Part shown: positions 1,604 to 31,813 of the stretch, one piece after another
Layout: every line of letters starts with the position of its first letter
Numbering within the stretch: the first letter of the stretch is position 1
Notes under the pieces: model-generated
What the model saw: only the letters and a program-made list of their open reading frames with translations
The model's database searches: none
What the model was told of the DNA's origin: nothing
Source of the DNA: a virus
Reading direction: 5' to 3' (one strand)
Virus record (IMG/VR): IMGVR_UViG_3300045988_099307
DNA length: 31,813 bases
Translations under genes and position numbers: made by a program

Positions 1604-3475
1604 ATGCAACTTACACACTCTATCGCGCTTGACTTTGGACGCGATACACTCCCTATTACGATTTTTGCAAAGCAGTACGACAAGGAGAGCCGCTTTGTTG
1701 AAATTGTGCCCCTCGAGTGCGGCAAGGATTACACGCTCGAAAGCGGAGTAACTGCTCGCTTGCAGCTTACAAAGCCCGACGGTCATACCGTACTCAAAAC
1801 GGCAACGATTGCAAACGGCGTTATCAAAGTCGAGCTCACGGAGCAAACGCTCGCCGTCGCGGGTACTGCCGTTGCGGAAATCGGGCTTTACAAGGGTAAC
1901 TCCCTTTTAAGCTCGCAAATTTTCTATATTGAAATTAAGCGAGCAGCTTATAACCCCGACGCACCCGCAAGCTCCGACGAATACCCCGCGTTAATTGACG
2001 CGCTCGGCAAGGTTGAAACCTCCGTAGGCTCTGCTAATTCCGCGGCAGCGGCAGCAAACGCAGCAGCAACGAAAGCGGAAACAGCGGCAGGCGGAGCCGA
2101 TACTGCCGCGCAAAACGCGACCTCGGCAGCGTCAGCGGCTAATAATGCCGCAAGCGGTGCAAATACCGCAAAAACGAACGCAAATAACGCAGCCTCCGCA
2201 GCGAATACCGCAGCGGGAGCGGCTAACTCTGCGGCAGCAGCAGCTAACGAGGCAGCAGAGGCAGCAGAGGGCGCGGAAAACGTTAATATCTCCGCTACGC
2301 AAACGACAACGGGAGCGGACATTACCGTTACCAACCGAGAGGGAGAACAAACGACCGTACATATTGACACGCTTACAGCGGTTAATACCTGGGAGGATAT
2401 TAAAAACGCCGTCCGCCTCGGACTCGGAGAAAAACTCTTTCCCGTTGGCTACGAGTTTACCACCCTCGACGCTGATACTACGCAAAATATTATATGGGTT
2501 GTGAGGGCGCACGACCACCATACAGCGGCAAATAATAAGCTCACGCATACAATGACGCTTGAAACAAAGAACGTTTACAGCTTGTCGAGCGGGGCGCAAA
2601 AGGCGGTACAGTACGACGCGACCGAGGCTTTTTATTTTGCGGAACTCGGACTCGCGGCGGGCACTTATAACATCACGATTGCAAATCAAGCCTGGTACAC
2701 CGCCGACAACGGCAAAACGTTTCAATTTGAGCTTACAAAGGCGCTCCCCGTGGGCGGTCAGCTCGTATTTGCTATGACCTATAACGCTACCCTCGAGGGC
2801 AAAAGCGTTAAAAGCTATGCAAATAAGACTACGACAACGGCACTTGAAACCGTTACTCTTACGGAGGGCTCCGAGGGTACAAGCCTCGGTACAACGAACG
2901 GGAGCAGCCCTAACGTAAACCATATGCACCGCGCTATTTTCGGCAGCAATAACTACGCTCAATCCGCCGTCCGTCAATGGCTTAATAGCGCCGCCGTAGC
3001 GGGCTCGGTTTGGACTCCTACTAACGTATTTGACCGTCCCGCGTCCTGGGCGACAAGCTATAACGGTTTTATGCACGGTTTGCCCGCTGACTTCCTGGCG
3101 GTTGTGCAGCCCGCCGTACTTGCTTGCCGTACAAATTCGCTCTTTGAGGTTGAAAGCCTCGACGGTACGGCTTTTGCTATCAATCAGCTTTACAGCCTTA
3201 AAGCGGATAAGTTTTTCCTACTCTCCCGCCCTGAAATTTTCGGGAATTGGGACAGCGAGAGTTACAAGGACGGTACGCAGCTCGAATATTATAACGGTTT
3301 GACGGCGACCGAGCGTATCAAACGCGACGCGGCGGGTACGGCGCGTTACGCTTGGTTGCGTTCTCCTAACCCGTCCAGCGCGATCAGCGCGCGCATTGTC
3401 TACTCCTCGGGCGAAGTGACCAACGACTGTGCGTACTACGGTCACGGCGTAGCCCCCGCTTGTATAATCGCATAA
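1604..3475 (+). CDS. DGR target protein 1: receptor-binding tail protein with a BppU-N-like N-terminus, an Ala/Asn-rich coiled coil, and a C-terminal lectin-fold (DUF6273/FGE-like) domain ending in VR1
   Basis: AGGAGG RBS before the ATG at 1604. The N-terminal 110 aa resemble a baseplate upper protein N-domain. The C-terminus ...YAWLRSPNPSSAISARIVYSSGEVTNDCAYYGHGVAPACIIA is homologous to the TR with adenine-only differences. Confidence 0.9.
   Translation: MQLTHSIALDFGRDTLPITIFAKQYDKESRFVEIVPLECGKDYTLESGVTARLQLTKPDGHTVLKTATIANGVIKVELTEQTLAVAGTAVAEIGLYKGNSLLSSQIFYIEIKRAAYNPDAPASSDEYPALIDALGKVETSVGSANSAAAAANAAATKAETAAGGADTAAQNATSAASAANNAASGANTAKTNANNAASAANTAAGAANSAAAAANEAAEAAEGAENVNISATQTTTGADITVTNREGEQTTVHIDTLTAVNTWEDIKNAVRLGLGEKLFPVGYEFTTLDADTTQNIIWVVRAHDHHTAANNKLTHTMTLETKNVYSLSSGAQKAVQYDATEAFYFAELGLAAGTYNITIANQAWYTADNGKTFQFELTKALPVGGQLVFAMTYNATLEGKSVKSYANKTTTTALETVTLTEGSEGTSLGTTNGSSPNVNHMHRAIFGSNNYAQSAVRQWLNSAAVAGSVWTPTNVFDRPASWATSYNGFMHGLPADFLAVVQPAVLACRTNSLFEVESLDGTAFAINQLYSLKADKFFLLSRPEIFGNWDSESYKDGTQLEYYNGLTATERIKRDAAGTARYAWLRSPNPSSAISARIVYSSGEVTNDCAYYGHGVAPACIIA
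2032..2285 (+). repeat. Low-complexity Ala/Asn/Thr-rich segment (putative trimeric coiled-coil stalk) inside target protein 1
   Basis: Translation is SANSAAAAANAAATKAETAAGGADTAAQNATSAASAANNAASGANTAKTNANNAASAANTAAGAANSAAAAANEAAEAAEGAE. The GCN-rich DNA also produces spurious long ORFs in other frames. Confidence 0.7.
3335..3463 (+). repeat. DGR variable repeat 1 (VR1)
   Basis: Ungapped alignment to TR 3962-4090 (offset 627) gives 12 mismatches in 129 positions, all at TR adenines: 3974, 4005, 4011, 4014, 4028, 4047, 4052, 4055, 4056, 4064, 4070, 4086. Confidence 0.93.
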
Positions 3476-3528: not shown

Positions 3529-3936
3529 ATGAGTGTGCGAAAAGGCGACCGCGGCGAGGGAAAACTGCAAGTGCTTAACAAAGCGCGGGAGCTCAAGAAA
3601 TACACCCTCGGGCTGATAAAATCGGAGAAACATTTTCCGAAGTCTACACGGTGGATATATGCCTCTCCGATAGTAAACGAAATACGGGAGGCGTGCGTAT
3701 GTATTCGGCACGCAAACTCCGTATTTGTAACAAACGACGAGGAGTACACATACCGCCGTATGGAGCAAGTCAAGGCACACGCGCACCTCGACGCTCTTTT
3801 AGACCTGGCGGACGACGCATACGACGCGGGCTACATATCGGGAAATCAAGTAGAGTATTGGACGGGCTTAATACTCAAAACCGACGACCTCTTGAAAGCC
3901 TGGATTAAGTCGGATAAAGAAAAATATCAAAAATAA
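3529..3936 (+). CDS. avd: Accessory variability determinant (Avd)-like four-helix-bundle protein
   Basis: A 135-aa basic helical protein located between the target gene and the TR/RT. It has an AGGAGG RBS and resembles the Avd / 23S rRNA-IVS protein family. Confidence 0.8.
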   Translation: MSVRKGDRGEGKLQVLNKARELKKYTLGLIKSEKHFPKSTRWIYASPIVNEIREACVCIRHANSVFVTNDEEYTYRRMEQVKAHAHLDALLDLADDAYDAGYISGNQVEYWTGLILKTDDLLKAWIKSDKEKYQK

Positions 3937-3961: not shown

Positions 3962-4090
3962 GGTACGGCGCGTAACGCTTGGTTGCGTTCTCCTAACCCG
4001 TCCAACGCGAACAACGCGCGCATTGTCAACTCCTCGGGCGAAGTGAACAACAACAATGCGTACAACGGTAACGGCGTAGCCCCCGATTGT
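3962..4090 (+). repeat. DGR template repeat (TR), non-coding template RNA region
   Basis: The region is rich in AAC/AAT codons (the virtual translation reads RSPNPSNANNARIVNSSGEVNNNNAYNGNGVAPDC). It is the invariant partner of VR1 and VR2. It lies between avd and the RT with no RBS or start codon of its own. Confidence 0.93.
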
Positions 4091-4178: not shown

Positions 4179-5279
4179 TTGCGGGCGACAAAGGTACCTC
4201 GCGGGGTAGTCCTTTTATATGCGTCCGCTTTTCTTATGGCATACGAGCAAGTAATTTCCTTTGATAATCTGTATAAAGGCTTAAAAGAGAGCTGCCGTAA
4301 TATCCGTTGGAAAGATAGCACCGTAGGATATGAGGGTAACGCGCTTAAAAATACCTATCGTTTGCGGCAAACGCTGCTTAACGGTACGTACAAAATAGAC
4401 CGATACCAACATTTCACGATATACGAGCCGAAACGTCGGGACATTGTAGCCACAAGGTTAAAAGACCGACAATTTCAGCGTTCGCTCTGCGACAACGGCT
4501 TTTATGAGCAGATTACAAAATCCTTTATAACAGATAATTGCGCTTGCCTCAAGGGGCGCGGCGTAGACTATACGCTAAACCGTATGACCGCACATCTGCG
4601 GCGGTATTATGCCGCGCACGGTTGCGACGGTTGGGTGCTTAAATGTGATATACGGCATTATTTCCAAAGCATACGGCACGACATAGCAAAGGCAGCAATA
4701 TGCAAGCGGGTTACAGATACTCAAATTGCGGAGCGGGCTTGCGAAATTGTGGACTCTTTCGGGGAAATCGGGTTAGGGCTCGGCTCCCAGGTATCGCAGC
4801 TTGTAGCTCTCGCCGTCCTGGACGACCTCGACCATTTCATAAAGGAGCGGTTGAGAATAAAGCATTATATCCGATATATGGACGACTTTATTTTAGTACA
4901 CGAGGACAAAGAGTATTTGCGGCAATGCAAAAAGGAAATCGAGGCGCGCCTATTCGCCCTCGGCTTACAGCTCAACGATAAAACGGCGCTTTACCCATTG
5001 CGCCAGGGAGTAAAGCTCCTACAATGGCGGTTTATCGTTACCGATACGGGCGCGATAATCCGCAAAATGGGTAAAAAGAAACAGAGCAAGCAGCGCCGCA
5101 AGCTCAAAAAGCTATACGCAAAAGAGCGCCGCGGAGAGTATGCGCCAGGGACGGCGCACGAGTCGCTCGTTTCCTGGCTTGCAAATGCCGCCCGCGGAGA
5201 TACCTACCACGAGCGGCTCAAAATGATAAATTATTTTAAGAATATGGAGGCTACATACAATGCAAGAGAATATCTATAA
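4179..5279 (+). CDS. DGR reverse transcriptase
   Basis: An IRYMDDFILV (YxDD) box and RT motifs (IYEPKRRDI, GLGLGSQVSQ) are present. A TTG start at 4179 sits 4-5 nt after AAAGGAGGA. An alternative ATG at 4236 (MAYEQVISFDNLYKGLKE) matches typical DGR RT N-termini. Confidence 0.92.
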   Translation: MRATKVPRGVVLLYASAFLMAYEQVISFDNLYKGLKESCRNIRWKDSTVGYEGNALKNTYRLRQTLLNGTYKIDRYQHFTIYEPKRRDIVATRLKDRQFQRSLCDNGFYEQITKSFITDNCACLKGRGVDYTLNRMTAHLRRYYAAHGCDGWVLKCDIRHYFQSIRHDIAKAAICKRVTDTQIAERACEIVDSFGEIGLGLGSQVSQLVALAVLDDLDHFIKERLRIKHYIRYMDDFILVHEDKEYLRQCKKEIEARLFALGLQLNDKTALYPLRQGVKLLQWRFIVTDTGAIIRKMGKKKQSKQRRKLKKLYAKERRGEYAPGTAHESLVSWLANAARGDTYHERLKMINYFKNMEATYNAREYL

Positions 5280-8074: not shown

Positions 8075-8107
8075 AAGGCGGGGGCAATAAGCCTCCGCCT
8101 TATTTTT
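8075..8107. terminator. Bidirectional terminator between convergent genes
   Basis: aaggcggggg / cctccgcctt hairpin flanked by an A-run on the left and a T-run on the right. Confidence 0.7.
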
Positions 8108-8438
8108 ATTTATAAATTTTTATGTGCATTGCTACACACAGCCCGCGCTCGGAGTTAATTATTTTTTCTACCGATACCGAGGCTTTATTATGGAGATATA
8201 AGCCCCGTATTTTGTTTAAGTCCTTATACCCTATAAAACCTATTTGCTCGTTCTTTTTAGTAAATACACCTATCGTATCGGGATAATCGGCAGTCGGCGC
8301 AGGGTGGAATAATAAATCGTCGCCCACCTTTAACCGCGCTATGTACGTTTGACGGCTCGTGCCGTTTTCGTTTGTGTATGCCGTACCCCATACGTCGCAA
8401 GAAAACTCGTCAATTACTTTTTTAGAAAACAACCCCAT
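8106..8438 (-). CDS. Stand-alone HIRAN-like domain protein (the only convincing minus-strand gene)
   Basis: The start at 8438 (MGLFSKK) lies 7 nt after GGAGG. The pattern VWGTAY...RLKVGDDLLFHP...DTIGVFTKKNEQIGFIG fits the HIRAN fold. The gene has its own promoter and terminator. Confidence 0.55.
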   Translation of the reverse strand: MGLFSKKVIDEFSCDVWGTAYTNENGTSRQTYIARLKVGDDLLFHPAPTADYPDTIGVFTKKNEQIGFIGYKDLNKIRGLYLHNKASVSVEKIINSERGLCVAMHIKIYK

Positions 8439-8452
8439 TTCCATACCTCCAT

Positions 8453-8622
8453 AAAAAAAGTGCGTGCAACTCGTCGCTGCACGCACGAAAAACGCAAGCT
8501 CCGAATTGCTACCACACTAATTCTATGTTTTACGCTATAAGACGCAAAAACGAGCCCGCATTTTTACCGAAGTAAAAAAAGCGCACTTACAGCATAAAAC
8601 AAATTATTAAATTAGTGTGGTA
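8453..8622 (-). promoter_or_regulatory. Candidate structured 5' leader / attenuator upstream of the HIRAN-like gene
   Basis: On the minus strand, a 13-nt perfect pairing (8622-8610 with 8522-8510) encloses 87 nt that include a UUCG-capped stem. This is followed by the hairpin gtgcgtgca/tgcacgcac (8486-8460) and a U7 run (8459-8453) directly abutting the RBS. Confidence 0.5.
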
Positions 8623-8627
8623 CCCTT

Positions 8628-8656
8628 ATTATATCAGAAAACCGCCGCGCTTTCAA
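8628..8656 (-). promoter_or_regulatory. Sigma70-type promoter (TTGAAA-17-TATAAT) driving the leader and HIRAN gene
   Basis: The reverse complement of 8651-8656 is ttgaaa and of 8628-8633 is tataat, with an exact 17-nt spacer. The predicted TSS falls at about 8620-8622, the first bases of the 13-nt pairing element. Confidence 0.7.
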
Positions 8657-8696
8657 TAATAATTGCAAAAAACCGCAAAAAGTTTTGAAAAAGGGC

Positions 8697-8725
8697 TTGA
8701 CAAATACGCATTAAAGGCGTATAAT
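8697..8725 (+). promoter_or_regulatory. Consensus sigma70-type promoter (TTGACA-17-TATAAT) for hicAB
   Basis: ttgaca at 8697-8702, a 17-nt spacer, tataat at 8720-8725; followed by the RBS gagaggag and the ATG at 8743. Confidence 0.8.
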
Positions 8726-8742
8726 ATAAACATAGAGAGGAG

Positions 8743-8925
8743 ATGATACAAACGAAAAGAGCAGACCTCATAAAGCTACTCGAAAAAAACGGTTGGTACT
8801 TAAAAAGAAACGGAGGCGGGCACGACATCTACACCAACGGAAAAGAGAGCGAAACAATCCCGAGGCACAGAGAATTAAAAGAAAATCTCGCAAGGGCAAT
8901 AATTAAAAGGCGGGGGCTCAAATGA
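8743..8925 (+). CDS. hicA: HicA-family toxin (mRNA interferase)
   Basis: A 60-aa protein: LIKLLEKNGWYLKRNGGGHDIYTNGK...IPRHRELKENLARAIIKRRGL, a typical HicA sequence. Confidence 0.85.
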   Translation: MIQTKRADLIKLLEKNGWYLKRNGGGHDIYTNGKESETIPRHRELKENLARAIIKRRGLK

Positions 8926-8974: not shown

Positions 8975-9370
8975 ATGAAAAATTCATATCCTATTTTGCT
9001 TATACCCGAGGATAAGGGCTTTACGGTTTATATTCCCGATTTTGATATTAACACACAAGGCGAGGATTTAACCGACGCTATCGAAATGGCGCGGGACGCT
9101 ATCGGCTTAATGGGTATTGATATGGAGGACGACGGAAAAGCGCTGCCTACACCCCGCAAGCTCGATACTGTTAAAACGGCGCAAGGAGAAATCGTAACGC
9201 TTGTAGACGTTGACTTTGCAGAATATCGGCGCAAAAACGAAATGAGAGTAGTTAAGAAAAATTGCACTCTCCCGAGTTGGCTTTGCTATGCGGCAGAAAA
9301 GGCAAATATTAACTTTTCCCAGGCTTTACAAGAGGCACTCAAACGGGAATTGAAAATAACAGACAAATAA
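8975..9370 (+). CDS. hicB: HicB-family antitoxin with a C-terminal RHH-like DNA-binding tail
   Basis: YPILLIPEDKGFTVYIPDFDINTQGEDLTDAIEMARDAI is a HicB N-domain. The gene is adjacent to hicA and has a GGAGG RBS. Confidence 0.8.
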   Translation: MKNSYPILLIPEDKGFTVYIPDFDINTQGEDLTDAIEMARDAIGLMGIDMEDDGKALPTPRKLDTVKTAQGEIVTLVDVDFAEYRRKNEMRVVKKNCTLPSWLCYAAEKANINFSQALQEALKRELKITDK

Positions 9371-9385
9371 GCAAAAACACACTTT

Positions 9386-9426
9386 AGCCCGTCCCCTTTT
9401 GAGAGGGAGCGGGCTTTACTATTTTT
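9386..9426 (+). terminator. Probable terminator after hicB
   Basis: agcccgtcccc / gggagcgggct imperfect hairpin followed by a T-rich tract. Confidence 0.55.
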
Positions 9427-9429
9427 ATG

Positions 9430-9453
9430 ATAAAACGGAGTGATTTTATTATG
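9430..9453 (+). repeat. Gene-junction repeat, copy A (ataaaacggagtgattttAttatg)
   Basis: Shares ataaaacggagtgatttt and ttatg with copies B and C, and ends in the start codon of the transposase. Confidence 0.85.
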
Positions 9454-10497
9454 GGTACTTGCTACAACCACCTTACATTTACAGACCGTCTACAAATCGA
9501 GGCTTGGCAAAAAGCGGGCATAAGCAAGGCGCAAATGGCGGAGCTGCTCGGCGTGCATTTAAGCACTATATATCGGGAATTAAAGCGCGGAGTATATACA
9601 CGCCTCAACAGCGACTTAACCGAGGAGGAGCGATACAGCCCCGATATAGCCGAGGAGAAATACAGAGAAAACCTCAAGGCAAAGGGAGCAGGACTCAAAA
9701 TAGACCACGACCACGAATACGCTACATATCTTGAATACAAAGTATCGGCAGAAAAATACGCCCCTGGTGCTGTCCTCGGCGAAATAAAAAGAAAAGGTAT
9801 AGAATTTAATACCACCATTTCAAAAACGACTTTTTACCGATATATCGAGGACGGCGTTTTTCTCACGATAACAAACAAAGACCTACCCGTTAAATGCAAC
9901 AAAGACAAGCAGAAATACGATAGAGTAAAACCGAACAGGGCACCCGCGGGTAAAAGCATTGAAAAGCGCCCCGAGGAAGTCGCGGAGCGCGATACTTTCG
10001 GTCATTGGGAAATGGATTGCGTCGTAGGTAAAAAAGGCACAAAGAAAACTTTTCTTGTCCTTACCGAAAGATACAGCCGCTACGAGATTATCCGCATTAT
10101 GAAAGACCATACCGCCGCAAGTGTAATAAAAGCTCTTAACGGAATAGAGCGGAGCTACGGAGCGGGCTTGTTCTCAAAGGTTTTTCAAACTATAACCGTA
10201 GACAACGGCTCGGAATTTTCCGACTATGAGGGACTCGAGCAGAGCTGCCGCAAAAATGACTCACGCACAACGGTTTATTATTGCCACCCGTACAGCTCGT
10301 ACGAGCGCGGCTCAAATGAAAATCAAAATAAAATGGTGCGTCGTCATTATCCGAAAGGTATTAGCCTTGATAAAGTTACCCCCGCAGATACCCGAAAACT
10401 CGAAAAATGGATTAACGACTATCCGCGGGGAATTTTTGATTATTACAGCTCTGCGGACATATACGAGGCTTGCATAAACAGCATATTAGCCGCTTAA
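9451..10497 (+). CDS. IS30-family DDE transposase/integrase
   Basis: N-terminal HTH (LTFTDRLQIEAWQKAGISKAQMAELLGVHLSTIYRELKRG) and a DDE core (HWEMDCV...ITVDNGSEFS...YERGSNENQNKMVRR). The start at 9451 (MGTCYNHL) follows the junction repeat. Confidence 0.85.
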   Translation: MGTCYNHLTFTDRLQIEAWQKAGISKAQMAELLGVHLSTIYRELKRGVYTRLNSDLTEEERYSPDIAEEKYRENLKAKGAGLKIDHDHEYATYLEYKVSAEKYAPGAVLGEIKRKGIEFNTTISKTTFYRYIEDGVFLTITNKDLPVKCNKDKQKYDRVKPNRAPAGKSIEKRPEEVAERDTFGHWEMDCVVGKKGTKKTFLVLTERYSRYEIIRIMKDHTAASVIKALNGIERSYGAGLFSKVFQTITVDNGSEFSDYEGLEQSCRKNDSRTTVYYCHPYSSYERGSNENQNKMVRRHYPKGISLDKVTPADTRKLEKWINDYPRGIFDYYSSADIYEACINSILAA

Positions 10498-10541
10498 AGC
10501 ACGTCAAAATAAATTTTTTTGCACTTTTTCGCATTTACCCC

Positions 10542-10570
10542 TTGACTTTTCAGTTAAAAAGTTTTACAAT
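10542..10570 (+). promoter_or_regulatory. Promoter-like element (TTGACT-17-TACAAT)
   Basis: ttgact at 10542-10547, a 17-nt spacer, tacaat at 10565-10570. It directly abuts the left arm of the following hairpin. Confidence 0.45.
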
Positions 10571-10612
10571 AAGTGCGAAAGGTTTTTAAGACCTTACCGC
10601 ACTTATTTTTTT
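10571..10612 (+). terminator. Rho-independent terminator downstream of the transposase
   Basis: aagtgcg (10571-10577) pairs with cgcactt (10598-10604), with an inner aaggt/acctt stem, followed by T7. Confidence 0.7.
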
Positions 10613-10691
10613 ATGGCTTTTGCCTATAACGAGGATAGAGCAACGCAGAGGTGCGACTCGAGCGCGTTATAGGATTTTAGCATAAGGGAAT

Positions 10692-10715
10692 AGAGGGCGG
10701 GCGCGCCCGCCCTCT
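10692..10715. promoter_or_regulatory. Perfect 24-bp GC-rich palindrome (candidate operator or recombination site)
   Basis: agagggcgggcg|cgcccgccctct has perfect dyad symmetry. It lies 33 nt upstream of the 10748 start, and no T-run follows on either strand. Confidence 0.5.
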
Positions 10716-10747
10716 GCTCTCAAAACAAAATGAAAGGAGTAAACGTA

Positions 10748-11005
10748 ATGACGTGCCGATACCTCACATACGAGGACAGAAAGAGTCTCGAGGCTCTTTA
10801 CGCCGACAGCGTAAGCCTTACCGACATTGCCTCCGAGCTCGGAGTACACCTTGCCACCGTTTACAGAGAACTAACGCGCGGCGGCACGGGCGAACTTGAC
10901 AAAAACGGGCGTAGCGGTTACAGCGCCGCACTCGGTCAAAAGCGCGTTAGCGAGAATTTCAAACGCCGCGGCAGACGAGCGGCAAATAATAATAAAACGG
11001 AGTGA
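10748..11005 (+). CDS. Stand-alone IS30-type HTH (HTH_38-like) DNA-binding protein
   Basis: The start at 10748 lies 8 nt after AAAGGAG. CRYLTYEDRKSLEALYADSVSLTDIASELGVHLATVYRELTRG is paralogous to the transposase N-terminus. There is no DDE domain. Confidence 0.7.
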   Translation: MTCRYLTYEDRKSLEALYADSVSLTDIASELGVHLATVYRELTRGGTGELDKNGRSGYSAALGQKRVSENFKRRGRRAANNNKTE

Positions 11006-11017
11006 TTTTGTTATGAA
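10984..11017 (+). repeat. Gene-junction repeat, copy B (34 nt identical to copy C)
   Basis: aaataataataaaacggagtgattttgttatgaa contains the stop codon of the upstream gene (NNNKTE*), an RBS-like ggag, and the ATG of the downstream gene. Confidence 0.9.
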
Positions 11018-11243
11018 CAAGGTACGCAGAAAAGAATTGCAGGAACTCTACGACATTATCTCCGAGGCAAAAGACCGCCTCGAGATGTTGCACGACGAGG
11101 AGGAGGAATACAAGGACAATATGCCCGAAAACCTCCAAAGCTCGGAACGCTACGAAAGAGCAGAGGCGGCGGTAGACGCTCTCGACTCTGCCGTATCCTC
11201 TCTTGAGGAGGCACTCGACTACATAGAGGAGGCGCAAGAATGA
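11013..11243 (+). CDS. Small acidic helical hypothetical protein
   Basis: ATG at 11013 within the junction repeat; codon usage is coherent; ATGA-type overlap with the next gene. Confidence 0.55.
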   Translation: MNKVRRKELQELYDIISEAKDRLEMLHDEEEEYKDNMPENLQSSERYERAEAAVDALDSAVSSLEEALDYIEEAQE

Positions 11244-11791
11244 CAGAGCAAAAAGAGCGCCTCAAGAAACTATATGCCCTCGCCTTGCGCGGCGTTGGCG
11301 GCGAAAAAGAGCAAGCCCAGGCTATATTCGATAAATTACTTAAAAAATATGCTATGACGCTTGATGACCTCGACGACGAGGTTATACAAGAGTACGACCT
11401 CGAATATCACGGCAAAGAGCAAGACCGTATTTTAATGCAGACCGCATATAAAGTTACGGACGATAAAAACGCGTTTAACCACTTGCAATATAACCATAGC
11501 GGCAGAGCTTGCCGTACCCGCCTACGCGTGCGCTGCACCGCTGCTCAAAAGGCAGAGATAGAGTTTTTGTTTAGCTTTTATGTAAGGCTTTGGGAAAAAG
11601 AAAAAGAGGCTTTGTTACAAGCGTTTTTTCAAAAGCACCGAATTTTTGGAAATCTCAAAGACGGAGAAAGCGGAGCGGAGCTTTCTCCCGAGGAATTGTT
11701 AAAGCTCGAGCTTATGATGAAAGGGCTATCGGACGAACAGCCATTAAAGCAGCTCACGGACGGAGCAGAAAATAATAATAAAACGGAGTGA
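11240..11791 (+). CDS. Hypothetical protein with a DUF2786-like N-terminus
   Basis: GAGGAGG RBS. LKKLYALALRGVGGEKEQAQAIFDKLLKKY resembles DUF2786. The C-terminus ENNNKTE* is encoded by junction repeat C. Confidence 0.55.
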   Translation: MTEQKERLKKLYALALRGVGGEKEQAQAIFDKLLKKYAMTLDDLDDEVIQEYDLEYHGKEQDRILMQTAYKVTDDKNAFNHLQYNHSGRACRTRLRVRCTAAQKAEIEFLFSFYVRLWEKEKEALLQAFFQKHRIFGNLKDGESGAELSPEELLKLELMMKGLSDEQPLKQLTDGAENNNKTE

Positions 11792-11803
11792 TTTTGTTAT
11801 GAA
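11770..11803 (+). repeat. Gene-junction repeat, copy C
   Basis: Identical 34-mer to 10984-11017. Confidence 0.9.
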
Positions 11804-16250: not shown

Positions 16251-16414
16251 TATTGGCTTTGAAATGCAATTACCTTTTGAGGTTAGCGCAATTTTGTTAA
16301 TTCAAAGGTCGTCAGCGGCAAATGCTCGCTCGACAAATTCCCTTATGGAAAACTAAAGCGTTAAACCTCGGGGCTTGGGGCAGAGCCCCAAAAGGAAACA
16401 ACGGAGGTAAAACT

Positions 16415-17185
16415 ATGCGCTGTCTATACAGAGAAAAAATACATAAATGCGGCGAGTTTTTGGAAGTCGATATTTTCCCCGTTTTTGAATATCAGCGCGG
16501 GCGCAGCAAGAAAAGAAAACCGACAACGGAAACACAGCAGCGGCTAAACCAACGTAACGCCGAAAGAAAGCTCACGCGCCTACTGAACACGAATTTTACA
16601 AAGCACGATATACGCTTTGATTTAACATATAGCGACGAGAATTACCCTGAAACGCCCGAGAACGCACAACGGCAAATGCAAAATTTCCTCCGTCGCGTTA
16701 AGCGTTACCGCGCAAAGCATAATTTGCCCGAGCTTAAATACGTTGCCGTTACCGAGGTGGGAAAAGAAAACGGGCGACTGCACCACCATATCGTTATGAG
16801 CGGCGGCGTTGATATAAACACCCTTGCGGAAATATGGGGCAAAGGCTATACGACGGCAAAGCCGTTACAGTTTGACGAGTTCGGTATAACGGGCATTGCG
16901 GTATATCTCGTAAAAAGCCCGATACTCGGCAAGCGTTGGAGCGCGAGCCGCAACCTCGAGCAGCCGAAAACGTCCGAACGCGACGGCAGAATACCGCAGT
17001 ACAAAATACGCGAGTTTGGAAACAGCGGCAACGACAACCGCGCAGAGCTTGAGCGTCTTTATGAGGGCTACGCCCTGGCAGACTGCAAGCCGTATTACAA
17101 CGAAATCAACGGCGGCTATTATATAACCGTCCGTATGTATAAAAAGCCCGCTCCGAAACGGAGCAGAAAGCGAGGGAAACTATGA
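16415..17185 (+). CDS. HUH-superfamily rolling-circle replication initiator (Rep)-like protein
   Basis: The start at 16415 follows ACGGAGG. Motif I-like RFDLTYSDENYP, HUH motif GRLHHHIVMSG, motif III-like GIAVYLVKSP (Y..K). Confidence 0.6.
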   Translation: MRCLYREKIHKCGEFLEVDIFPVFEYQRGRSKKRKPTTETQQRLNQRNAERKLTRLLNTNFTKHDIRFDLTYSDENYPETPENAQRQMQNFLRRVKRYRAKHNLPELKYVAVTEVGKENGRLHHHIVMSGGVDINTLAEIWGKGYTTAKPLQFDEFGITGIAVYLVKSPILGKRWSASRNLEQPKTSERDGRIPQYKIREFGNSGNDNRAELERLYEGYALADCKPYYNEINGGYYITVRMYKKPAPKRSRKRGKL

Positions 17186-31340: not shown

Positions 31341-31813
31341 ATGGCATTAAGCGGTAGTTTTTATAACTATCCCGTAAAATCATTCGGGCTATATTGTGAA
31401 TGGAGCGCAAGCCAAAGCGTTACGGGTAATTACAGCAATGTTACGCTGAAAGTTTACTTGTCTTACTGGGATTTATACGTAGGCGCAAGGGACGACGGCG
31501 TTATAAACATTGCGGGCAATTCGAGCAATTTTTCGACCGCAGCTATCAGCGAGTCCTCGAGCGGGTGGAAAAAGAAACTCATAGCGCAAAAGACCGTAAC
31601 AGTATATCACGACGGAAACGGCAACGCTAATTGTTACCTCGGCGCCTCCTGGCGATTTAGCGGCACATACTCGGGTACATCTATCGGGACGATTACGGCG
31701 GAGCAAACCGTTTCTCTCGATAAGTTAGACCGTTCGGCTCCGTCTATCAGCATAAGCGTATCAGACATAACGGCAAACTCCGTAAAGCTCTCTGCCTCCG
31801 CGTCTACAACGTG
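31341..31813 (+). CDS. Tail fibre protein, 5' part (continues through the circular junction into 78-1587)
   Basis: AAGGAGG RBS. Translates to MALSGSFYNYPVKSFGLYCEWSASQSV... and is open to the window end. It is in frame with 1-1587 through the 77-bp overlap, giving about 660 aa in total. Confidence 0.75.
   Translation, partial: MALSGSFYNYPVKSFGLYCEWSASQSVTGNYSNVTLKVYLSYWDLYVGARDDGVINIAGNSSNFSTAAISESSSGWKKKLIAQKTVTVYHDGNGNANCYLGASWRFSGTYSGTSIGTITAEQTVSLDKLDRSAPSISISVSDITANSVKLSASASTT
31737..31813. repeat. Terminal direct repeat, identical to 1-77
   Basis: Exact 77-nt identity with the window start. Confidence 0.95.

Follow-up and report, generated by a model that had tools for sequence, protein, structure and literature searches.

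The stretch of DNA analysed here, IMG/VR virus record IMGVR_UViG_3300045988_099307 (31,813 nucleotides, in the following called the window), represents a temperate tailed phage of gut Clostridia in its circular form. In it, a gene for an IS30-family transposase lies next to a gene for a small protein whose only recognised domain is a helix-turn-helix (HTH). Judged from comparisons with related phages and with integrated copies in bacterial DNA, the entire phage of 31.7 kb very probably behaves as one giant IS30-type element that integrates by means of its own transposase. The window represents a complete circular genome of 31,736 bp, since its first 77 nucleotides are identical to its last 77 (1-77 and 31737-31813) and a tail gene reads intact across the join once this overlap is removed. 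The genes include those for terminase, portal, protease, capsid, tail, holin and amidase proteins, HicAB and a diversity-generating retroelement, and the hosts listed among the GTDB genomes belong to several families of Clostridia (Acutalibacteraceae, Ruminococcaceae, Oscillospiraceae, Lachnospiraceae and others).

A tailed phage with a domesticated IS30 integrase is not new, as such phages were published in 2018 and 2025. What is apparently new is the structure of the ends, the length of the target duplication, the predicted junction promoter with its hairpin, the rule by which targets are chosen and the conservation of the HTH-only gene. Comparison of the sequences shows the ends, the spacer between them, the duplications and the target motif, and also that the predicted promoter and the hairpins are conserved.

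Ends of the phage and the IS30-type joint

The ends of the phage are defined by its integrated copies. Ten long metagenome contigs that encode an identical transposase carry the same phage genes upstream of it and ten different host genes downstream, and all ten match the window up to position 10552 (...CCCCTTGACTTTTCA) and diverge directly afterwards. At the other side, contigs encoding the identical HTH-only protein have ten different upstream host genes and match the window only from 10555 onwards (TAAAAAGTTTTACAAT...). Altogether, at least 10 right and at least 20 left junctions in different host contexts were inspected, and all break at these two positions. Thus, the prophage extends from 10555 round the circle to 10552. 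The transposase and HTH-only genes, which are neighbours in the circle, lie at opposite ends of the prophage: the transposase gene is its last gene, at the right end and reading outward, and the HTH-only gene is the first inside the left end, reading inward. The exact transposase protein occurs at the right end of at least 10 prophages, each at a different location.

Table 1 Positions of features of the integration region and of a presumed replication gene in the window
Feature	Position	Strand	Remarks
Translation-start boundary sequence ATAAAACGGAGTGATTTTnTTATG	9427-9453	+	also at 10989-11015 and 11775-11801
IS30-family DDE transposase, 348 amino acids (aa)	9451-10497	+	Pfam HTH_38 and rve; NF033563; PHROG 4646
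Right inverted repeat (IRR)	10525-10552	+	core TTTCGCATTTA at 10527-10537; contains the -35 hexamer; prophage right end at 10552
Junction promoter (predicted)	10542-10570	+	-35 TTGACT 10542-10547 (IRR); 17-nt spacer; -10 TACAAT 10565-10570 (IRL)
2-bp spacer GT between the joined ends	10553-10554		missing from integrated copies; outside the prophage
Left inverted repeat (IRL)	10555-10582	+	core TAAGTGCGAAA at 10570-10580; contains the -10 hexamer; prophage left end at 10555
Terminator-like two-tier hairpin with seven-T run	10568-10612	+	hairpin 10568-10607; T run 10606-10612
Perfect 24-bp GC-rich palindrome	10692-10715	+	leader of the HTH-only gene, 33 nt before the start codon
HTH-only paralogue of the transposase N-terminus, 85 aa	10748-11005	+	Pfam HTH_38 only; PHROG 11420
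Rolling-circle Rep-type domain protein (REP_ORF2-G2P)	16322-17185		presumed replication initiator

The two ends carry inverted repeats that abut each other in the circle (Table 1). Aligned in register from their tips, IRR and IRL match at 18 of 28 positions, as counted by eye. Their 11-nt core, TAA[A/G]TGCGAAA, occurs in the whole window only here, on the minus strand in IRR and inverted, on the plus strand, in IRL; a search for this core revealed no inner repeats in the window that could delimit a discrete insertion sequence (IS). The repeats thus bracket the entire phage, not the transposase gene. An initial annotation, made from the letters of the window, had reported that no inverted repeats flank the transposase gene. 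Nothing indeed brackets that gene by itself, but its 3' flank holds both ends of the phage.

The dinucleotide between the repeats differs among independent circular contigs of the window lineage (GT, TT, AA and CA), and in phages of the nd12 type, whose transposases are about 55% identical to that of the window, 16 different dinucleotides were found in 63 circular contigs with constant ends. Judged by these sequences, the abutted ends with their variable 2-bp spacer are a joint of the IS30 type. The motif CTTGAC is kept in the right end of every lineage that was examined by eye, and the order of transposase gene, joined ends and HTH-only gene is maintained in related phages with transposases that are only 53-58% identical. 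A deviating arrangement is present in the nd12-type contig L066 (around 3590-3660), in which the ends are separated by some 57 nt of unrelated DNA instead of 2 bp. This stretch begins and finishes with TTTCTTGAAAAT, and could reflect tandem insertions at the same site or an assembly path through a duplication.

The enzyme itself is intact, as stated in the initial annotation. The Pfam domains HTH_38 and rve cover residues 5-47 and 184-282, respectively, the NCBIfam model NF033563 ('IS30 family transposase') gives 226.7 bits against a cut-off of 80, and PHROG 4646 ('transposase') is matched over the whole length (E 3e-138). Residues D189, D251 and E285, which we take to be the catalytic triad from the pattern of the IS30 family, do not vary when the enzyme is aligned with its homologues from phage nd12 and Faecalibacterium phage Lagaffe. 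No gene for a tyrosine or serine recombinase was detected by Pfam and PHROG scans of the open reading frames (ORFs) of the window or in the Pfam tables of near-identical relatives, in agreement with the initial annotation, which had recognised no other recombinase. The proposal made there, that the enzyme acts as phage integrase and not as an IS, is supported by integrated copies that break at the repeats, by the variable spacer, by the target duplications of 14-16 bp and by the lack of inner repeats.

The observations suggest the following course of integration. The transposase would recognise the abutted repeats, cut at their tips, discard the 2-bp spacer and attach the ends to host DNA at a stagger of some 15 bp; repair of this stagger would yield a target duplication of 14-16 bp. 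Because the circle would open between the abutted repeats, the HTH-only gene comes to lie at the left, reading inward, and the transposase gene at the right, reading outward. Upon exit or copy-out, the enzyme would connect the ends again, leaving 2 bp of flanking DNA in between.

The start of the transposase gene lies in a junction sequence that, as noted in the initial annotation, is shared with two other genes. The 16-mer AAAACGGAGTGATTTT occurs exactly three times (9432, 10994 and 11780), each time 3 nt ahead of an ATG, within a ribosome-binding boundary sequence of about 27 nt that precedes the transposase gene and two neighbouring genes (Table 1). In relatives (L013-L022) the genes after the HTH-only gene are exchanged for different gene sets at such a boundary, perhaps a hot spot at which modules are exchanged; were the first two copies to recombine, the entire integration module of 1,562 bp would be lost.

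Predicted junction promoter, HTH-only gene and leader palindrome

Where the ends are joined, a promoter-like sequence arises (Table 1). It is the best sigma-70-type match between positions 8900 and 11300 (10 of 12 positions), its 17-nt spacer includes the 2-bp joint, and it exists solely when the ends are joined. The pattern TTGAC[TA], exactly 17 nt, TAnnAT was found in 33 of 35 circular-form contigs, with transposases that are 54-100% identical; the exceptions are Lagaffe (AATATT) and the odd contig L066. Different -10 boxes occur (TACAAT, TAGAAT, TATCAT, TAACAT and TATAAT), the tip sequences between the boxes differ among lineages, and the positions at which IRR and IRL do not match are those taken by the -35 box in one repeat and by the -10 box in the other. 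The sequences thus indicate that the joined ends form a conserved predicted promoter, directed into the HTH-only gene and the long run of plus-strand genes behind it. Since the -35 box would be contributed by the right end and the -10 box by the left end, integration would split the promoter and switch it off, and circularisation would switch it on.

Immediately inside the left end there is a terminator-like two-tier hairpin followed by a T run, with a predicted folding energy of -22.4 kcal/mol (z -4.45) and a 5' arm that overlaps the -10 box and the IRL core. An equivalent hairpin with U-run was found in eight other lineages (z -2.6 to -6.9), with arms that vary by lineage (GTGCG/CGCAC, TTGCA/TGCAA, TGCAG/CTGCA, AGCAG/CTGCT). 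It is proposed, as the least secure step of the model, that transcription coming from outside is stopped by this hairpin and that transcription from the junction promoter bypasses it; the transcript from this promoter would start within the 5' arm and could escape termination. A transcript starting at 10578 is predicted to fold to only -9.4 kcal/mol, with a residual stem that lies away from the U-run.

The HTH-only gene, which is also the first gene downstream of the junction promoter, begins 250 nt past the transposase stop codon. As described in the initial annotation, it encodes an HTH_38 domain only, and the motifs quoted there are present. The protein shares 39% identity with the transposase (residues 3-79) and has a recognition helix similar to the one in the transposase of the same phage; it matches PHROG 11420, a family of phage proteins of 82 aa, from end to end (E 4e-37). 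A sub-threshold match to Sigma70_r4_2 (sigma-70 region 4) was also obtained. Among 41 distinct variants the length is kept at 76-92 aa, in-frame stops are found in one alone (L195), and the conservation reaches past the HTH, including the motif YSAELAQ...RRG. Because of this maintained length, the near lack of interrupted variants and the conserved residues outside the HTH, the comparison indicates that the gene is under purifying selection rather than in decay, at least in the lineages compared.

These properties bear on the composite transposon model of 2025, in which the phage is carried between two IS30 copies, an active one at the right and a decaying remnant, here the HTH-only gene, at the left. 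The model is in line with the description of full-length outward IS30 genes and variable truncated inward ones, some of which are fused to other domains (PMC12823448), and with the paralogy of the HTH-only protein to the transposase N-terminus. Still, it appears unlikely for the present phage: inner repeats are absent, so neither 'IS copy' is discrete and no two complete copies with ends of their own were found, and a decaying remnant is difficult to reconcile with the maintained and conserved ORF and with a protein that matches a phage family end to end. The composite model may describe the origin of the arrangement, not its present state.

With respect to function, it is plausible from its sequence that the HTH-only protein is a regulator of the junction promoter, a competitor of the transposase or a cofactor in target selection. 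Our guess would be that it acts as a regulator or as a cofactor for target selection, having the first HTH in common with the transposase. A literature search on what the two HTH motifs do in the IS30 transposase gave nothing usable; Nagy and colleagues reportedly assigned, in 2004, hot-spot recognition to the first (HTH1) and end binding to the second (HTH2).

The leader of the HTH-only gene contains the perfect 24-bp palindrome to which the initial annotation had called attention as a candidate binding site for both proteins. The palindrome is present as described, with a folding energy of -27.7 kcal/mol (z -5.4), and its symmetry and position make a functional site conceivable, either attP or an operator to which the transposase and the HTH-only protein bind, since sequences of this kind are often bound by dimeric HTH proteins. 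Nevertheless, such a role is quite improbable. Recombination takes place 137 bp away, at 10552/10555, the palindrome is missing from the leaders of nd12 and Lagaffe, and sister lineages have unrelated GC-rich palindromes of 24-36 bp at the same position despite recognition helices that have changed little (HLAT[VI]YRE[LMF], by eye). The idea that the palindrome represents the joined inverted repeats was rejected, as integrated copies break upstream of it. In an alignment of nine sister palindromes, 9 of 12 pairs keep their pairing through changes on both sides, although the sequences were chosen by a palindrome finder and the pairing is thus partly built in. Since the sister palindromes differ in sequence and yet pair, the comparison favours a structural hairpin in the leader, for example an RNA attenuator, terminator or stabiliser, over a conserved operator or recombination site.

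A second inverted repeat is present in the same leader, with arms at 10623-10631 (CCTATAACG) and 10665-10673 (CGTTATAGG). A sister lineage has CCTATGGCG here, with pairing kept through G-U only, which hints at RNA structure. A scan of 9300-11100 against Rfam at a permissive threshold gave chance-level matches only.

Target duplication and choice of host sites

The target duplication was derived from eight matched pairs of left and right flanks, obtained from same-site matches and from two internally deleted prophages. Its length is 14, 15, 15, 15, 15 and 14 bp in the window lineage and 16 and 15 bp in the nd12-type lineages; a ninth pair shows a 9-bp overlap that is probably due to chance. The initial annotation had suggested a search for integrated copies with IS30-like repeats and duplications of 2-3 bp. 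Integrated copies exist, and the repeats stand at the prophage ends, but the duplications are 14-16 bp long in all eight pairs. Searching IMG/VR with 15-mers for further left ends produced mostly unrelated contigs and no matched end pairs, and looking up a neighbouring protein of 131 aa gave new sites but no left/right pairs on one contig.

The two internally deleted remnants (L153, with both ends within 3.8 kb, and L164, within 8 kb) have lost most of the phage and retain both ends, the HTH-only gene and a 14-15-bp duplication; in this respect they resemble non-autonomous derivatives. In different samples (L005, L026 and L150) a single host site with the duplication GAAAAGCCGAATTTT is occupied by phages with different modules: one has a transposase that is 100% identical, one a 78%-identical transposase, and one a variant left end with an 83-aa HTH gene. 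The pattern suggests either that end modules are exchanged in mosaic fashion or that one site is used repeatedly.

A regular pattern was observed in the host DNA at the left end. Left junctions were drawn from metagenome, IMG/VR and GTDB genome contigs and deduplicated to 57 of the window type and 104 of the nd12 type. The host flank resembles the reverse complement of a sigma-A promoter in a fixed register: the sequence TGTCAA ends 26 bp from the phage tip, an ATTATA box follows 17 bp beyond it, and the complement of an extended -10 TG is often found next to this (by eye). The register was evaluated by sliding a search frame from -12 to +12 and scoring a -35-like element with CAA at -29 to -27. 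Such an element was present at register 0 in 27 of the window-type junctions and at +/-1 in 11, with 0-2 at each other register; for the nd12 type the numbers are 65, 11 and 0-3. Thus, 38/57 and 76/104 junctions, respectively, lie within +/-1 of the 26-bp register, and in 90 of the 92 junctions at register 0 a -10 box is located 16-18 bp further on.

The nearest host gene on the left side is on the minus strand in 19 of 20 annotated contigs, and in 6 of the 10 contigs of the set with an identical HTH-only protein the host start codon is 86-107 bp from the junction. On this evidence, the flanking host elements look like genuine promoters that fire away from the phage. In promoter coordinates, the join is at about -61 and the duplicated 15 bp extend from about -61 to -47, so that the A/T-rich region upstream of the host promoter remains in place. 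The same rule was found in two lineage groups with transposases that are about 55% identical. Judged from these junctions, the phages prefer sites that are oriented, precise to the single base and located at the upstream edge of host sigma-A promoters, a preference that is apparently new.

The proposed model would thus have the left end joined 26 bp upstream of the -35 hexamer of an outward-firing host promoter. Candidate features that could be read are promoter DNA bound by RNA polymerase, or the sequence CTTGAC itself, which either the first HTH of the transposase or the HTH-only paralogue might recognise directly. The joining of the ends would at the same time build a phage promoter, with a -35 box from the right end and a -10 box from the left end 17 bp apart. 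The complete proposal, in which an IS30-family integrase reads host promoters (at about -61, in one orientation and with a 15-bp stagger) and a promoter is switched by the state of integration, is put forward tentatively, as a serious possibility that falls somewhat short of being probable.

A different explanation would be that insertion into A/T-rich DNA is random and that only harmless insertions survive. The flanks are indeed A/T-rich and intergenic, and assemblies sample established lysogens only. However, such selection after insertion can neither produce a register of a single base, with 27 and 65 junctions at shift 0 and 0-3 per register beyond +/-1, nor explain the uniform orientation, and it would have to give the same outcome in both lineage groups. 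Furthermore, analogous targeting by the Mutator-type DDE elements TnGBS and ISLre2 was deduced from many insertions (PMC3942029). We therefore consider this explanation very improbable.

Known systems, phage class and biological meaning

The weakest alternative is an ordinary IS30 insertion that hitch-hikes on the phage and is unrelated to its integration, with the HTH-only gene as a fragment of a second copy: even though the protein is a bona fide IS30-family transposase and DDE genes are usually passengers in phages with another integrase (PMC12823448), this has next to no probability, as neither repeats nor a duplication surround the transposase gene as a unit of about 1-1.5 kb, repeats around 9.4-10.6 kb, which according to the initial annotation would point to a simple IS, were looked for and the core was found only at the phage-end junction, the prophage boundaries coincide with the repeats in every integrated copy examined, the gene order is kept across distant lineages, no other integrase was found, and both proteins have phage families of their own (PHROG 4646 and 11420). 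The sequence data thus support the view that the IS30-type enzyme is the resident integrase of the phage.

Several observations weigh against the proposed integration and switching model. With about 15 bp, the duplication is unusual for IS30, where it is 2 bp. A few members of the IS30 family with long duplications exist (IS1630), and the length thus does not exclude membership of this family. About 30% of the junctions have no recognisable promoter at the fixed register, and some of the junctions may go back to a shared event, given that vertical inheritance of prophages is possible. For the transposase gene itself, no promoter was recognised. MAFFT and RNAalifold returned no consensus structure of the left-end hairpin for 13 lineages, since its arms were put out of alignment by insertions and deletions; that the hairpin is conserved consequently rests on single-sequence folds and inspection. 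The escape from termination hangs on an assumed start site about 7 nt past the -10 box. Finally, catalysis by the transposase, promoter activity, termination and the role of the HTH-only protein are what we infer from sequence.

The closest published phages are the IScream phages (Wirbel, Hickey et al., Nature 2025, PMC12823448), which carry a full-length, outward-facing IS30 gene at one end; the one at the opposite end is truncated and non-catalytic and faces inward. About 1,780 candidates were listed in a gut virus catalogue, and experiments supported circles and particles in Blautia hansenii (PMC12823448). The phage of the window is likewise a prophage of gut Clostridia without a classical integrase, with circular forms and diverse hosts. 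Its two IS30-derived genes are both under 1 kb away from its ends, with the transposase stop codon 55 bp from the right end and the HTH-only start codon 193 bp from the left end. As described above, no other integrase was found, and a complete set of phage genes and a circular form are present, as known here from genes and assemblies. The window thus belongs to the IScream class, and since it fits the published definition, the central proposal of the initial annotation is correct but not new. Whereas the inward gene is treated as a degraded copy in the IScream paper, it looks conserved here. A term search of that paper and of its preprint gave no hit for inverted repeats, a spacer, target duplications, target sites or promoters, and a literature search with the class name found no later mechanistic work.

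An earlier example is phage Lagaffe (MG711461; Cornuault et al. 2018, PMC5883640), for which an IS30 integrase was discussed. Its homologue, labelled 'Integrase, IS30 Transposase family' in GenBank and with an HTH gene after it, is 55% identical to the transposase of the window, and the right-end motif, a promoter-like sequence at the junction and the left-end hairpin are shared. Lagaffe differs in having a 48-kb genome of the myovirus type and 3 bases between the repeats in the deposited junction (by eye). The authors noted flanking direct repeats, which they found puzzling and left unexplained, and they analysed no targets (PMC5883640).

IS30 of E. coli, which belongs to the same family, forms a comparable circle or dimer with abutted repeats and 2 flank-derived bases. 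This 2-bp joint carries a strong promoter, and IS30 produces duplications of 2 bp, either at near-palindromic hot spots or adjacent to its own ends (PMC9333248). The element in the window is much larger (31.7 versus 1.2 kb), makes a duplication of about 15 instead of 2 bp and is targeted to the upstream edge of sigma-A promoters. Furthermore, the junction promoter drives the transposase gene in IS30, whereas in the window it faces the HTH-only gene, with the transposase gene some 30 kb downstream. According to the accounts in two later papers, IS30 transposase could replace lambda integrase in a lambda-IS30 chimera (Kiss et al. 2003, as related in PMC12823448 and PMC5883640).

The only precedent that was found for targeting upstream of promoters is formed by Mutator-like elements, namely the conjugative elements TnGBS and the insertion sequences ISLre2 and ISKra4, which insert 15-17 bp upstream of -35 boxes (PMC3942029). 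As in the window, a DDE transposase takes the place of a phage-type integrase in TnGBS, a large mobile element. On the other hand, these elements belong to the Mutator-like superfamily, insert at 15-17 instead of 26 bp and are conjugative elements or IS, not phages; the behaviour is shared, not the protein family.

Phage Mu is also a tailed phage with a DDE transposase as integration enzyme. It uses transposition to replicate, takes host flanks along when it is packaged and generates duplications of 5 bp (as Mushu; PMC5883640), whereas the phage of the window has an IS30-family enzyme, ends that are joined in circles and a duplication of about 15 bp, which does not fit a Mu-like phage. No MuB-type partner turned up in the family scans run on the window, and the related phage Lagaffe has a cos site (PMC5883640). 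The Spiroplasma plectroviruses (SpV1-type), to which the initial annotation had pointed as a precedent, also carry an IS30-like transposase in a virus, but they are small filamentous viruses with single-stranded DNA; Cornuault et al. mention small filamentous phages with single-stranded DNA as well (PMC5883640).

Other parts of the genome deserve brief mention. The Rep-type protein is the sole further nuclease-type DNA-processing enzyme that was found, HNH and terminase proteins aside. The diversity-generating retroelement (3335-3463, 3962-4090 and 4179-5279) has a variable repeat of 129 nt at the 3' end of a tail-fibre-like gene (1604-3475); its template repeat is found upstream of the gene for the reverse transcriptase, and all 12 differences between the repeats are at template adenines. 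A HicA/HicB toxin-antitoxin pair (8743-8925 and 8975-9370) lies directly upstream of the transposase gene, with a terminator-like hairpin behind it at about 9389-9425; the gene calls of some relatives (L003, L007 and L012) lack HicA. An ORF at 8106-8486, without an informative family match, and a doubtful 64-aa ORF at 8634-8828 are the only plausible minus-strand genes seen, the rest of the genes pointing in one direction. Nowhere in the window was a classical repressor recognised.

Provided that the targeting is real, it accounts for the ability of one phage to establish itself at many sites and in several bacterial families without killing genes. This would be a 'safe-haven' strategy, as documented earlier in bacteria for Mutator-type elements. 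Splitting of the junction promoter provides a testable model of lysogeny control: if true, the switch by integration state would contribute to this control, and the left-end terminator would shield the prophage. The system further suggests a compact and programmable-looking means of insertion for gut Clostridia, which are hard to engineer.

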